From: an uncultured Clostridia bacterium | GTDB lineage: Bacteria; Bacillota; Clostridia; TANB77; CAG-508 | Length of the DNA: 64,000 bases | NCBI GenBank assembly: GCA_944387565.1 | Contig: CALXFJ010000002.1 | Span: forward strand, 9,354 to 73,353 | Reading direction: 5' to 3' | Shown: positions 51,657 through 59,209 of the stretch, one piece after another | Numbering within the stretch: the stretch's first letter is position 1 | Layout: each line of letters starts with the position of its first letter | The notes under the pieces: model-generated | The model's input: only the letters and a program-made list of their open reading frames with translations | The model's database searches: none | What the model was told of the DNA's origin: nothing | Program-made: the position numbers and the translations under genes

Positions 51657-52688
51657 TTAGTGTTGCTCAGGTATTGCATTTCGTACCATGCATAGATACT
51701 TTAATGCATAATCTATATCTTGAGCAGTAATGATATAATTACCATTATTTTCTTCAATAGAAATATCTTCATCTCTGAATATATTATCTATATCAAATGA
51801 AGAATAATTGTTCCTCCATTCTATCCTTATAGAAGAAATTCTGGTGTTACTACCAATAACAATATCGCCATCAATAGTATGGAACAGAATCCAAGGAGAA
51901 TAAGAATTTGGGTCATATCCATTTGGTAACAATTCATATGTATACTCATTAGGCTCATAGACATGGTCCATAAGGCTTAGAGTGAACCTATTGATTTCAA
52001 TAAGTTCTCTATAATTACGATAACAAGAATCATGATAGAATTTTCCATCAATATAAATGCATGGAGAATCCTTAAAGTCTTTCATCATAAATTTGTTACA
52101 GCAACATTGACAAATTGTACCATCTTTGGGAATATGATACCGAGTTGAATAAAAACTTATAGAACTATTATTATTCTTAAAGTTTTCATAACTTTCAACA
52201 ATACCATGCCTAATTAGCTTATCCCTTTCTTCTTTTGTTGCTTTGATTAACCTAATTGAACCAAGTTTGTCTAGTAAGAGCCAACCAAAGACAACAAATT
52301 CATTGAGAGTTTGATTAGGATGAGATTTGATAAAAAGTGCTCTATCATTTAATAATTCATAGAAAAATGAAAGAGTTACAATTTTATCTTGAACAGCCAT
52401 GATGGAATCAAAATAGTTTTTTGGTTTATCAAAAACTCGTTCCTCATAAGAAATTTCTACAACAGGGAGAGAATTATCTTTACTTTCTCTAGATATTTTG
52501 GCTTGCTTAAGTCTAAAGATTCTTGTTTGTTCTTTAGTGAAATTAGGATGACCAAAAATATCAAAAGATAAAGGAATAATTTGTTCTCCTTGAAAAGAAA
52601 CTTTTACACTATAGGGAAGGGCTAATTTATCCAAAGTGATATGTCCTAAATTGCCAACATTTTTAATTGGCTTATTTTCAATGATCAT
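51657..52688 (-). CDS. hypothetical Cys-rich protein (343 aa)
   Basis: Cys cluster CQCCCNKF...C...HDSC and no recognisable domain. It has its own promoter and leader hairpin (described in the findings). GC is higher than the surroundings. Confidence 0.5.
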   Translation of the reverse strand: MIIENKPIKNVGNLGHITLDKLALPYSVKVSFQGEQIIPLSFDIFGHPNFTKEQTRIFRLKQAKISRESKDNSLPVVEISYEERVFDKPKNYFDSIMAVQDKIVTLSFFYELLNDRALFIKSHPNQTLNEFVVFGWLLLDKLGSIRLIKATKEERDKLIRHGIVESYENFKNNNSSISFYSTRYHIPKDGTICQCCCNKFMMKDFKDSPCIYIDGKFYHDSCYRNYRELIEINRFTLSLMDHVYEPNEYTYELLPNGYDPNSYSPWILFHTIDGDIVIGSNTRISSIRIEWRNNYSSFDIDNIFRDEDISIEENNGNYIITAQDIDYALKYLCMVRNAIPEQH

Positions 52689-55709: not shown

Positions 55710-55946
55710 AACTCAAAATTATTGAGATTTGAAAAAATCAAAAAAATATGTAAAAGCAGAGTCAGCAAGGAAAGAAAAACATTCATATCTACCGTATCTA
55801 TACGAGGCATGTTAAGCATATATAGTGAATATATAAAAAATACTTAAATTTAGAAGTTAAAAATAAAATTATAAGAAAGAAGAAGCACTCTAAGTAAAGT
55901 ACTTTGATAAGTGCTTTGTTTTTTGGGGAAAATTCATGACAAACAC

Positions 55947-55996
55947 TTGTCGGAAATCTTCGTAAATGATATAATATTTACGAAGATTTCCGACAA
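55947..55996 (+). promoter_or_regulatory. perfect 21-bp inverted-repeat operator flanking the -10 box of the abiEi promoter
   Basis: ttgtcggaaatcttcgtaaat - gatataat - atttacgaagatttccgacaa. The arms are exact reverse complements. The spacer contains TATAAT. Confidence 0.7.
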
Positions 55997-57472: not shown

Positions 57473-57587
57473 AATTATAGCTATTGTGTATAAATTTTGA
57501 CAATACTTTAACAGTAATGGTACTATGTAAAAAGTTGTATGAAATTAGCTTAAAATAAGATTAAAACTTAAGGAGCAAAAGAAAAAA

Positions 57588-58166
57588 ATGGATATTTATG
57601 AAGAAATATATAATAAAAATAAAAAATTAATAGATAAGGCAATAGAAAAAATAAAAGGATGTGAGAATGACCCATTACATTTTATAGGACATACAATAGA
57701 TGTTATAAATTATGTAAAAGAATTATTAGAAAAATTTTCAGTAAATAAAGAAATATGCATAATATCAGCATATTGGCATGACGTAGGAAGAAGCGTGTGT
57801 GATGAAGGACATGAAGAAAAAAGTGGAAAAATGTTAAAAGAAGAAATGACAAAATTAGGATATAGTAGTGAATTTATAGATGAATGTTATTCAGCAGTTA
57901 CAAATCATAAAAGAAAATATATACCACCAACAATAGAAGGGGTAATTGTAAGAGATGCAGATAAACTTGCATATATTGGAAAAAATAGATGGAAAAGATG
58001 TATTGGAGAAAATCCAGATGCACTTGATGAAATTATAGAAGTTTATTTACCAATATTAAGAAATAAAATATTAAGATTAAATTATTCAAAAGAATTATTT
58101 GATAGAGATATGAATGCTTATGTAAAAGATTATCTAAAAATATGGAAAAAGAGGAGGTCAAAATGA
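57588..58166 (+). CDS. HD-domain phosphohydrolase
   Basis: H...HD...D motifs (GHTIDV, YWHDVGR, RDADKLAY). Preceded by its own extended -10 promoter (TGGTACTAT). Confidence 0.7.
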   Translation: MDIYEEIYNKNKKLIDKAIEKIKGCENDPLHFIGHTIDVINYVKELLEKFSVNKEICIISAYWHDVGRSVCDEGHEEKSGKMLKEEMTKLGYSSEFIDECYSAVTNHKRKYIPPTIEGVIVRDADKLAYIGKNRWKRCIGENPDALDEIIEVYLPILRNKILRLNYSKELFDRDMNAYVKDYLKIWKKRRSK

Positions 58167-58573
58167 GAGTATTTATAATATGTAGTAAAGCATTTTATAA
58201 GGATATAGAACCAATAAAGGAAAAATTAGAAAATATGGGGCATAAAGTAGAATTACCAAATTCATACTATGAAAAAGATGCAGAGAAAAAGAGTTGGGAA
58301 CTAGGAGAACAAGAACACACAAACTTCAAACAAAAAATGTTTAGAATGAGTAGAGAAAGAATAAAAGAAGTAGACGCAGTATTAGCATTAAATTTTGATA
58401 AAAATGAAAAGAAAAATTATATAGGAGGTTCAACATTCCTAGAATTATATGAAGCTTTCATGGAAAATAAGAAAATATATCTATATAATGAAATTCCAGA
58501 AGGAATATTATACGACGAAATATCAGGATTTTCACCAATAATAATAAATGGAAACTTAGATTTAGTAAAATAG
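58163..58573 (+). CDS. nucleoside 2-deoxyribosyltransferase/DNPH1(Rcl)-like protein
   Basis: Flavodoxin-like pattern: an N-terminal beta-strand (RVFIICS) and DAVLAL...IGGSTFLELYEAF, which matches the NDT/DNPH1 nucleophile-Glu block D..GT..E.GYA. A gaggagg RBS precedes the start. Confidence 0.45.
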   Translation: MRVFIICSKAFYKDIEPIKEKLENMGHKVELPNSYYEKDAEKKSWELGEQEHTNFKQKMFRMSRERIKEVDAVLALNFDKNEKKNYIGGSTFLELYEAFMENKKIYLYNEIPEGILYDEISGFSPIIINGNLDLVK

Positions 58574-58583
58574 GTAAAATGAT

Positions 58584-58994
58584 ATGAAAAAAATGAATAT
58601 AATAATGGTATTTAATAAAGAAGAAAATAAAATTCTTATGTGTAAAAGAGAAAAAGAACCATATAAGGGAAAATATAATTTAATTGGTGGAAAAGTAGAA
58701 TTGGGAGAAGATGAAGTATGTGCAGCATATAGAGAACTAAAAGAAGAAACTGGAATAACGAAGGATGATATTAAACTAACTTATTTTATGAATTTTGAAT
58801 ATAAAATAGATGATTTTGAGTTAGAGGTGTTCGTTGGAAAATTAAATAAAGATATAGAATTGGTAGAAGAAATAAATAAACTATATTGGTTTGATAAAAA
58901 TGCAAATTTCTTTAACATAGAAAAATTTGCAGGAGAAGGAAATATTGGACATATATTGTATAAAGTAGAACAGTGTAAAAATAAAATATTTTAA
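58584..58994 (+). CDS. NUDIX hydrolase
   Basis: Nudix box GGKVELGEDEVCAAYRELKEETGI. Confidence 0.8.
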   Translation: MKKMNIIMVFNKEENKILMCKREKEPYKGKYNLIGGKVELGEDEVCAAYRELKEETGITKDDIKLTYFMNFEYKIDDFELEVFVGKLNKDIELVEEINKLYWFDKNANFFNIEKFAGEGNIGHILYKVEQCKNKIF

Positions 58995-59209
58995 AAATTA
59001 AGGAAAACAAGTAAAAGCTTGTTTTTTCTTTCTTTTGGCTTGAGAAAAAATGTAAAGTATGATATATTAAAATAAGTTTTAGAAAAAATAATCTTTATGC
59101 TAAATTCTACAAATTTAGCATAAAAAATGAGTATAATAATATTAGGATGTGTCCCTAAATGGACATTTTGTCCAAAAAGAAACGTCCCCAAATGGACATG
59201 GAGGAAGAT

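Follow-up and report, generated by a model that had tools for sequence, protein, structure and literature searches.

The closest described relatives of the gene trio treated here are small enzymes that act on nucleotides, and we found nothing in the literature specific to the trio itself or to the family of its middle protein. YpgQ of B. subtilis, like YedJ of E. coli a stand-alone HD hydrolase, hydrolyses (d)NTPs and is a Mn-dependent (d)NTP pyrophosphohydrolase (PMC8177086). MutT and MTH1 are 8-oxo-(d)GTP diphosphatases. DNPH1/Rcl and MilB/BlsM are (deoxy)nucleoside 5'-monophosphate N-glycosidases of the nucleoside 2-deoxyribosyltransferase (NDT) superfamily; for DNPH1, the mechanism and the role as a nucleotide-pool sanitiser have been described, the catalytic triad includes the strand-1 Tyr Y24 and the general-acid Asp D80, and S98 is the phosphate-binding Ser (PMC10603095). 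A system of a different kind, AbiE, is a self-contained two-gene system (AbiEi/AbiEii) of the type IV toxin-antitoxin/abortive infection class.

The window, by which we mean the whole 64-kb stretch of DNA analysed, comes from an uncultured Clostridia bacterium and contains three ORFs packed tightly on a single strand next to such an abortive-infection module. The features of the locus are as follows.

57497..57526, + strand: promoter-like site, a consensus match only
57588..58166, + strand: HD-domain phosphohydrolase of the stand-alone YpgQ/YedJ/2pq7 type, 192 aa (Pfam HD, 1.2e-11)
58163..58573, + strand: middle protein, 136 aa, NDT/DNPH1 superfamily, unannotated family (AlphaFold/Foldseek and a profile link)
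58584..58994, + strand: MutT-like NUDIX hydrolase, 136 aa (Pfam NUDIX, 9.7e-15)
59000..59037, + strand: AT-rich hairpin followed by a U-run, 3' of the NUDIX gene (folding energy)

The sequence-only reading had described a row of HD, NDT/DNPH1-like and NUDIX genes directly downstream of AbiE; the coordinates, strand, domain and fold calls and operon-like packing of this row were all confirmed, as were the AbiEi and AbiEii genes immediately upstream (PADLOC, 5e-73 and 9e-97). At the junction of the HD and middle genes, the TGA stop of the former overlaps the ATG of the latter in an ATGA at 58163-58166, a GAGGAGG lies 5 nt 5' of this ATG, and the homologues of the middle protein all begin with MK/MR-I/V-L/F-I-I-C-S. 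Since none of the homologues starts at the position equivalent to 58142, this alternative start was rejected. The NUDIX gene begins 10 nt past the middle-gene stop. The trio has hundreds to thousands of homologues that are 70-100% identical, so we regard the genes as real, and we infer that they are co-transcribed. GC content stays level along the locus (25% in this region), searches with Rfam gave no credible riboswitch or structured RNA, and among repeats only an inverted repeat in AbiEi and a repeat pair near the start of Era stand out.

As for the extended -10 promoter that had been proposed for the trio, the 115 nt that separate AbiEii from the HD gene do contain a TTGACA-18 nt-TACTAT arrangement with a TG before the -10 hexamer; because promoter-like sites are no commoner in this AT-rich region than in its shuffles (30 found, 29.0 expected), it is a plausible candidate for a promoter of the trio's own. 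The terminator scan and folding recognised no terminator-like hairpin between AbiEii, which lies on the same strand, and this site, so that read-through from AbiE is also possible. The hairpin 3' of the NUDIX gene (-11 kcal/mol, z = -0.9 relative to shuffles), which the terminator scan missed, is possibly a weak intrinsic terminator closing the unit.

The HD protein scores 45.4 bits with Pfam HD (PF01966; cut-off 22), and its AlphaFold model (pLDDT 93.8) finds 2pq7, 3djb, B. subtilis YpgQ (5dqw/5dqv) and YedJ as the top Foldseek matches; 2pq7 is also the closest solved sequence (2e-07). It carries the metal-binding H...HD...D motif and has the helical fold of HD proteins. Across 30 homologues, H35, H64, D65 and D125 never vary, nor do H31, H75 and D123, and H107 is retained in 90% or more. 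The protein is thus like YpgQ and YedJ in size, all-helical HD fold and metal-ligand motif, but shares only about 18-21% identity with them and has an extended six-residue H..HD..H..H..D motif that may bind two metals.

The NUDIX protein scores 55.2 bits against Pfam NUDIX (PF00293; cut-off 21.1) and, from its translation, has a complete NUDIX box (GX5EX7REUXEEXGU) at G36-I58, reading G36-KVELG-E42-DEVCAAY-R50-E51-L-K-E54-E55-T-G57-I58. MutT and MTH1, the closest solved sequences, share with it a single-domain build, a length of about 130 aa and the entire NUDIX box, and its orthologues, found at 66-86% identity in many species, are annotated by JGI as 8-oxo-dGTP diphosphatases. A substrate specificity is not assignable, however, because the score lies far below the NCBIfam equivalog cut-offs for MutT (TIGR00586, 38.5 versus 97.9 bits; PRK10776, 36.1 versus 148 bits).

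The middle protein has no match in Pfam or NCBIfam even at E = 10, PF05014 and PF15891 included, and PADLOC and PHROGs gave only noise. Its AlphaFold model (pLDDT 86.5) predicts a flavodoxin-like alpha/beta fold that matches NDT and DNPH1 structures. In the PDB, Foldseek ranked NDTs first (7e-05 to 9e-04, TM 0.53-0.60), the best being PF05014 enzymes of Lactobacillus, Chroococcidiopsis and Trypanosoma; DNPH1 (TM up to 0.64) and YtoQ (TM 0.66) were also matched, as were, more weakly, TIR and TIR-STING structures, and the top matches in BFVD are phage NDTs. By sequence, the relationship is more distant: the middle protein stays below all Pfam thresholds, and sequence and profile searches against PDB chains gave nothing beyond sub-threshold matches to NDTs, at E = 0.14-0.26 with the profile. 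Distant family members do reach PF05014 (P0222, for example, with 30.1 bits, cut-off 28.8), and the family profile aligns with a bona fide PF05014 protein of another species, L126, at 92.7% probability (E = 4.3e-07), which links the family transitively to genuine NDT/DNPH1 superfamily members. The NDT/DNPH1-like fold proposed for the protein encoded from 58163 is in this way borne out by structure prediction and Foldseek, and the lack of any NDT/SLOG-like fold, named beforehand as a finding that would count against the proposal, was not what we saw. The suggested kinship with the SLOG/LOG fold found no such backing: there was no specific relationship to SLOG/LOG ligand sensors of the Thoeris ThsA type in Pfam, and SLOG proteins appear in BFVD only at ranks 44-45 with E > 0.02. 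The middle-protein family is large, comprising about 1,100 clusters at the 50% identity level and occurring in the genomes of at least 340 species. It is strongly conserved in gut Clostridia, yet goes unrecognised by Pfam and NCBIfam.

The catalytic residues give a mixed picture. The block GGSTFLELYEA, which the sequence-only reading had singled out as containing the nucleophile, spans G88-A98 (58424-58456), and its E94 recurs in 90% or more of 59 diverse members of the family, as does D71, while N77 and K103 are invariant. E94 aligns with E104, the nucleophile of DNPH1, and with a Glu of the L126 PF05014 protein and is predicted to lie in the loop-helix after the central strand, making it the putative nucleophile. 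Size and predicted fold are those of DNPH1/Rcl and MilB/BlsM (about 135-150 aa, flavodoxin-like), and a strand-Asp ... G-x-x-x-x-E-x-x-x-A ... K-K-I block is shared with DNPH1. In contrast, there is no significant sequence match to DNPH1 (hhalign E = 0.047), and the middle protein has a long helical insert (residues 33-69). In a low-confidence alignment, the DNPH1 Tyr Y24 corresponds to a hydrophobic residue (F4), the Asp D80 to S63, a position that varies in the family between S, N, D, H and Y, and S98 to a Gly; the catalytic Tyr and Asp thus do not appear to be evidently conserved. Because these equivalents are S63 and a hydrophobic residue, the putative glycosidase activity is not assured.

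These same observations bear on whether the middle protein could instead be a true nucleoside 2-deoxyribosyltransferase, or a nucleoside/nucleotide-binding salvage protein, that exchanges bases rather than destroying nucleotides, in which case the cluster would serve deoxynucleoside salvage in an auxotrophic gut bacterium. That transferase-type NDTs are the best structural matches fits this possibility, as does the Gly found six positions before the nucleophile in place of a phosphate-binding Ser such as DNPH1 S98 (PMC10603095), and genes for NT5C 5'-nucleotidases and adenylosuccinate enzymes lie nearby in some genomes. Conversely, the Tyr and Asp that NDTs typically use in catalysis are not evidently retained either, the N-terminal Tyr being absent, the gene context consists of hydrolases rather than salvage genes, and the family's fusion partners are the house-cleaning pyrophosphohydrolases MazG and NTPase_I-T and not salvage kinases or phosphorylases. 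We consider a salvage function unlikely.

We compared the locus with its counterparts in the same species and in relatives. In at least eight metagenome samples of the window's species, which were looked up by the HD sequence so that the 100% identity of HD among them is by selection, the order is VTT-RumA-AbiEi-AbiEii-HD-middle gene-NUDIX-Era-YqzL-RecO. HD, the middle gene and NUDIX are full length in all of these samples, whereas AbiEii is split in four of the eight same-species contexts (L100, L102, L103 and L104), in the last of which AbiEi is shortened as well. In the sister species L188, whose RumA, Era, RecO and NUDIX are 91%, 95%, 93% and 86% identical to those of the window, the row is RumA-[Pep_deformylase-365 aa]-NUDIX-Era-YqzL-RecO; AbiE, HD and the middle gene are all absent from the RumA-NUDIX site, and the 365-aa protein has a weak PF15891 match. 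In more distant relatives, NUDIX directly follows RumA (L189 and L190), HD orthologues (76-81% identity) lie zero to two genes past RumA (L105-L114), and L132 has Era-HD-72 aa-RecO. What occupies the interval from RumA to NUDIX or HD differs from species to species. A 148-aa gene after HD in L105 looked NDT-like by eye, but hhalign gave only 5.6% probability and Pfam no match.

All three genes are conserved between species as much as RumA or more: HD is 81% identical in L109, where RumA is 74% identical, the middle protein 75% in L060 and L064 (RumA 71-74%) and NUDIX 72% in L189 (RumA 45%). Core synteny outside any defence context, which the sequence-only reading had accepted as an argument against its own proposal, is largely found for HD and NUDIX, which lie in the RumA/Era neighbourhood without AbiE in related species; the exact trio was seen in the window's own species only. 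No AbiE genes were seen beside HD or NUDIX orthologues among the relatives examined, and among 80 species with the middle gene an AbiE pair lies near it in L026 only. We conclude that the trio is not part of the AbiE system and is probably independent of it in function, AbiE having probably been inserted 5' of the trio into the variable slot that follows RumA.

The proposal had been that the trio could form a defence or counter-defence unit, acting by nucleotide depletion or signal degradation; such an anti-phage unit would work with AbiE or be transcribed from its promoter. The attractions of this reading are that the trio lies immediately 3' of AbiEi/AbiEii with no recognisable terminator between, that defence effectors use NDT-like and TIR-like folds, both of which occur among the structural matches of the middle protein, and that PADLOC gives a match of the NUDIX protein to its candidate PDC-S07 (1.4e-13). 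PDC-S07 is, however, an unvalidated candidate according to the PADLOC listing, and its 48.7 bits fall short of the 55.2 bits for generic Pfam NUDIX, the level of match expected of any small NUDIX protein. PADLOC matched no validated defence model in the trio: the middle protein had no match, and HD had no more than a generic one to Cas3-HD (1e-04 over 33 residues). Nor do the trio's homologues travel with mobile elements: phage records contain none, plasmid records one weak match (26% identity, in a 1.3-Mb Rhizobium plasmid record), and in IMG/VR HD has none and the middle gene two, each on a contig longer than 400 kb. The surrounding 25 kb are core genes, with aaRS, TsaD, RecG and IspE upstream, and the locus is neither mobile nor a defence island. 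Together with the decay of AbiEii beside an intact trio, orthologues in core or house-cleaning contexts devoid of defence genes and a conservation at least equal to that of RumA, these data leave a defence function, tied to AbiE or not, highly improbable. Equally remote is a recruitment of the trio as an AbiE accessory in this one species via read-through from the AbiE promoter, for example to deplete or detoxify the nucleotide that the AbiEii nucleotidyltransferase consumes or produces, or to degrade a phage-derived nucleotide; were it true, the NDT-like protein would represent a new immune or counter-immune effector that cleaves nucleotides. As a defence lead the trio fails, and it is not worth pursuing as a new immune system.

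The synteny, conservation and distribution favour the alternative that had been offered alongside, a housekeeping operon for sanitising the nucleotide pool, and we asked what company its members keep elsewhere. NUDIX orthologues adjoin genes for NTPase_I-T, Ham1, UDG, a YfbR-like HD protein, a second NUDIX, Ppx/GppA and PurA/PurB. In L191, a Ham1-HD fusion, a NUDIX, a member of the middle-protein family (E = 6e-21) and the NUDIX orthologue stand in a row, and in L126 an HD gene (48% identical) overlaps the PF05014 NDT gene by 4 nt and is followed by two small genes and the NUDIX orthologue. The L126 NDT paralogue also gave a sub-threshold match to LDcluster4 (0.0026). Members of the middle-protein family occur fused to MazG, NTPase_I-T or RNase_T. 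The loci of the middle gene were looked up with an alignment of its closer homologues. In 80 other species, close orthologues of this gene are in very different contexts: among 111 immediate neighbours, NTPase_I-T, HD and NUDIX occur five times each and Ham1 and NT5C twice each, and other neighbours include adh_short, GNAT, HAD, gyrase B and NAD synthase.

Such variety is what one would expect if there were no shared pathway and the trio were simply neighbours within one of the runs of small same-strand hydrolase and other enzyme genes that typify these reduced, AT-rich Clostridia genomes, each with its own job, the packing and the ATGA overlap reflecting only genome compaction. The statistics are in keeping with this, NUDIX showing no enrichment next to the middle gene (5 of 111 near versus 4 of 140 far genes; a NUDIX-box regular-expression count likewise gave Fisher p = 1), and so are the unrelated genes that separate the HD and NUDIX orthologues in L109 and L112 and the species-specific content of the slot after RumA. 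What argues for a connection is that an NDT-superfamily gene recurs beside the same HD or NUDIX orthologues in independent lineages and from different NDT subfamilies, in L126 with its 4-nt HD overlap, in L191 directly 5' of the NUDIX orthologue and possibly in L188, and that the MazG and NTPase_I-T fusions point to a common theme. A row of genes with no common pathway is a serious possibility, albeit one we rate below a functional cluster.

We thus favour, with modest confidence, a housekeeping, AbiE-independent nucleotide-pool cluster, which would serve nucleotide-pool sanitation and nucleotide catabolism in this uncultured gut Clostridia bacterium with its genome of about 25% GC. The specific pathway that we propose for it is more tentative, its substrates and reaction order being deduced from the enzyme families. 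The YpgQ-like HD protein and the MutT-like NUDIX protein would turn (d)NTPs that are aberrant or in surplus into (d)NMPs. The NDT/DNPH1-like protein, with E94 as nucleophile, would then cut the N-glycosidic bond in the (d)NMP or nucleoside so formed, for which human DNPH1 acting on hmdUMP serves as the model; a sanitiser role downstream of a pyrophosphohydrolase would then be shared with DNPH1. Because base and (deoxy)ribose 5-phosphate would be released, the aberrant nucleotide could no longer be re-phosphorylated.

Should the middle protein prove to be a bacterial equivalent of DNPH1, nucleotide-pool sanitation in bacteria would gain an irreversible step of glycosidic cleavage, and the protein's family, whose company and fusions comprise MazG, NTPase_I-T, Ham1, NUDIX and HD proteins, would deserve an annotation of its own.

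The trio downstream of AbiEi and AbiEii lies on the + strand, with the ORF positions and the HD and NUDIX domain calls of the sequence-only reading confirmed in the window sequence and by Pfam, respectively. The locus contains the following features:

57497-57526: promoter-like site TTGACA-18-TACTAT with an upstream TG, consensus match
57588-58166, + strand: HD ORF, 192 aa; Pfam HD 1.2e-11
58163-58573, + strand: middle ORF, 136 aa (NDT/DNPH1-like)
58584-58994, + strand: NUDIX ORF, 136 aa; Pfam NUDIX 9.7e-15; complete NUDIX box G36-I58

The HD and middle ORFs overlap in an ATGA, a GAGGAGG Shine-Dalgarno sequence lies 5 nt ahead of the middle-gene ATG, and NUDIX starts 10 nt past the end of the middle gene. 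A weak AT-rich hairpin with a U-run lies 3' of NUDIX, a hairpin/terminator scan found no terminator-like hairpin between AbiEii and the HD gene, and GC content is flat across the locus (~25%). The trio had been assigned its own extended -10 promoter; a matching site is present at 57497-57526, but shuffled sequence yields about as many sites of this kind (29.0 vs 30 in the region), making it a plausible rather than a demonstrated promoter. AbiEi and AbiEii lie immediately 5' of the trio as described earlier (PADLOC, 5e-73 and 9e-97). Just 5' of AbiEi, a perfect 21-nt inverted repeat (55947-55996; TTGTCGGAAATCTTCGTAAAT / ATTTACGAAGATTTCCGACAA, spacer 8 nt) overlaps a promoter-like TTGTCG-17-TATAAT site with TG and is probably an AbiEi autoregulatory operator. 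AbiEi is called as 197 aa on other contigs, and its true start is likely 56013 (197 aa) and not the GTG at 55911 given in the ORF list.

The adjacency to AbiE had suggested a defence unit, and we compared the locus within and between species using metagenome contigs rather than complete genomes. On at least eight independent contigs of the window species, the order VTT-RumA-AbiEi-AbiEii-HD-middle gene-NUDIX-Era-YqzL-RecO is identical. In four of the eight strain contexts (L100, L102, L103, and L104), AbiEii is broken into two pieces of 84+155 aa or 150+120 aa, and AbiEi is shortened in L104; the AbiE module is therefore undergoing decay in some of the population, whereas the genes 3' of it are intact, with HD, middle gene, and NUDIX full length on same-species contigs in which AbiEii is split. 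In the sister species (L188; identity to the window 91% for RumA, 95% for Era, and 93% for RecO), AbiE, HD, and the middle gene are all absent from the site, and Pep_deformylase and a 365-aa gene lie between RumA and NUDIX in an otherwise unchanged gene order. This 365-aa protein, encoded immediately 5' of the NUDIX orthologue (L188 4668-5765), resembles two tandem NDT-like halves, the first with a weak PF15891 match (E = 0.0017, below cut-off), and would be a different NDT-superfamily gene at the same position. In more distant relatives, the NUDIX orthologue directly follows RumA, the HD orthologue lies 0-2 genes past RumA (L105-L114), and one locus (L132) has the order Era-HD-72 aa-RecO. From these arrangements, we conclude that the gap after RumA is a variable slot with cargo differing by species, AbiE being one such insertion. 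The cargo in L105-L114, L188, and the window is AbiE, His_Phos_1, a peptidase C1 fragment, a radical SAM gene, Pep_deformylase, or nothing, and the slot behaves as a local hotspot of gene gain and loss. Core synteny thus holds in part: HD and NUDIX are found near RumA without AbiE in relatives, but among the contexts examined, only contigs of the window's species showed the trio in this exact form.

Conservation of the trio genes equals or exceeds that of core genes (identity compared with that of RumA: HD 81% vs 74%, the middle gene 75% vs 71-74%, and NUDIX 72% vs 45%). The surrounding 25 kb is core (aaRS, TsaD, RecG, IspE, RumA, Era, RecO, and HPF), and nothing at the locus points to a defence island or to mobility. 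None of the trio proteins matched a validated PADLOC defence model; NUDIX matched the candidate PDC-S07 at 48.7 bits, less than its generic Pfam NUDIX score. The middle protein had no relatives in phage records, one weak match in plasmid records (26% identity, a 1.3-Mb Rhizobium plasmid record), and only two in IMG/VR, both on contigs over 400 kb; the HD protein had none in IMG/VR. AbiE decay, AbiE-free relatives, core-like conservation, and core surroundings argue against a defence unit tied to AbiE, and a defence role is very unlikely.

Three further features were observed in the window. The partly palindromic 16-nt motif GTCCC(T/C)AAATGGACAT occurs twice, 33 nt apart (59151-59166 and 59184-59199), within the Era ORF as listed, at its 5' end; because Era has 300 aa in the sister species vs 317 aa in the window, its true start is probably downstream of the listed one, and the two copies may function as an operator or a leader element. 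A 343-aa Cys-rich ORF (51657-52688, - strand), unmatched in Pfam and PADLOC, is a fast-evolving gene, with only 57% identity in the sister species vs 91-95% for flanking core genes. A hydrophobic 477-aa ORF (61748-63181) with no Pfam domain on record is a variable gene, given its 71% identity in the sister species and its absence from the same-species strain L102, where HPF is directly followed by SASP.

The middle protein matched nothing in Pfam and NCBIfam even at E = 10. It has 918 homologues in a collection clustered at 90% identity, the best 120 of which are all ~136 aa and 73-82% identical, bar one same-species cluster at 99%, and a profile search with the family gave 1,086 cluster representatives (50% identity). 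The top structure matches of its AlphaFold model (pLDDT 86.5, pTM 0.82) were NDTs from Chroococcidiopsis (7e-05, TM ~0.6) and T. brucei, followed by DNPH1, YtoQ, and TIR domains, and a viral-model search led to phage NDTs. Because of these matches, because more distant family members reach PF05014, and because the family profile aligned with a bona fide PF05014 protein (L126; 92.7% probability), the NDT-superfamily assignment holds; no specific relationship to SLOG was found. Within this known superfamily, the middle protein represents a subfamily that is new and lacks annotation. Its GGSTFLELYEA block stands (residues 88-98), with E94 conserved in 90% or more of the 59 diverse family members compared and aligned in register with the DNPH1 nucleophile E104 (mechanism in PMC10603095). 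In a low-confidence alignment, DNPH1 Y24 corresponds to a hydrophobic residue and D80 to S63, a family-variable position, and for these reasons the catalytic chemistry is not assured; with NDTs as its closest structure matches, the protein is possibly a salvage transferase.

The H...HD...H...H...D residues of the HD protein are invariant or nearly so. The closest structures to its model (pLDDT 93.8) are those of stand-alone hydrolases, namely 2pq7, 3djb, YpgQ of B. subtilis, and YedJ of E. coli; YpgQ acts on (d)NTPs as a Mn-dependent pyrophosphohydrolase (PMC8177086). MutT and MTH1 are nearest to NUDIX among solved proteins, its score for the MutT equivalog being far under cut-off.

NUDIX orthologues in other species are placed among house-cleaning and nucleotide genes: HAD-like-NUDIX-NTPase_I-T (L109), ASCH-NUDIX-Ham1-NUDIX with a YfbR-like HD further along (L195/L196), and Ham1-UDG-Ppx/GppA-...-NUDIX-NTPase_I-T-NUDIX-PurA-PurB (L197-L199). 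In L191 (1687-8430), the run comprises Ham1, a 124-aa gene, Ppx/GppA, a Ham1-HD fusion (413 aa), NUDIX, a middle-family member (hmmsearch 6e-21), the NUDIX orthologue, Metallophos, two small ORFs, and NTPase_I-T; in L126, the HD orthologue (48% identical) overlaps the PF05014 NDT gene by 4 nt and the NUDIX orthologue lies two small genes beyond. The main rival reading is that the three small enzyme genes are just neighbours with no common pathway. Among 111 immediate same-strand neighbours of the middle gene (80 species genomes), NTPase_I-T, HD, and NUDIX occur five times each and Ham1 and NT5C twice each, the neighbourhood being otherwise highly variable. The control of 140 genes at least five genes away contains four NUDIX genes and thus shows no NUDIX enrichment beside the middle gene (5/111 near vs 4/140 far); HD and NTPase_I-T are not among the control families listed and therefore have at most three members each. 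As predicted from gene calls, family members are also fused (P0131, P0188, P0183, and P0266) to CobU (cobinamide kinase), RNase_T exonuclease, MazG, and NTPase_I-T, the MazG fusion carrying a second NDT domain; the CobU and RNase_T fusions are not explained by a sanitation model.

Based on core-like conservation and house-cleaning company, the best-supported reading is the alternative already offered by the sequence-only reading, i.e. that the trio is a housekeeping cluster for nucleotide-pool sanitation or catabolism, with the upstream AbiE an unrelated insertion. In the likeliest mechanism, the YpgQ-like HD and MutT-like NUDIX enzymes would convert aberrant (d)NTPs to (d)NMPs, and the NDT/DNPH1-like protein would cut the glycosidic bond via E94, making removal irreversible, as modelled on the irreversible glycosidic cleavage by DNPH1 in mammals. 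The operon is ordinary and the system of the middle protein unsurprising; the middle protein itself merits family annotation.
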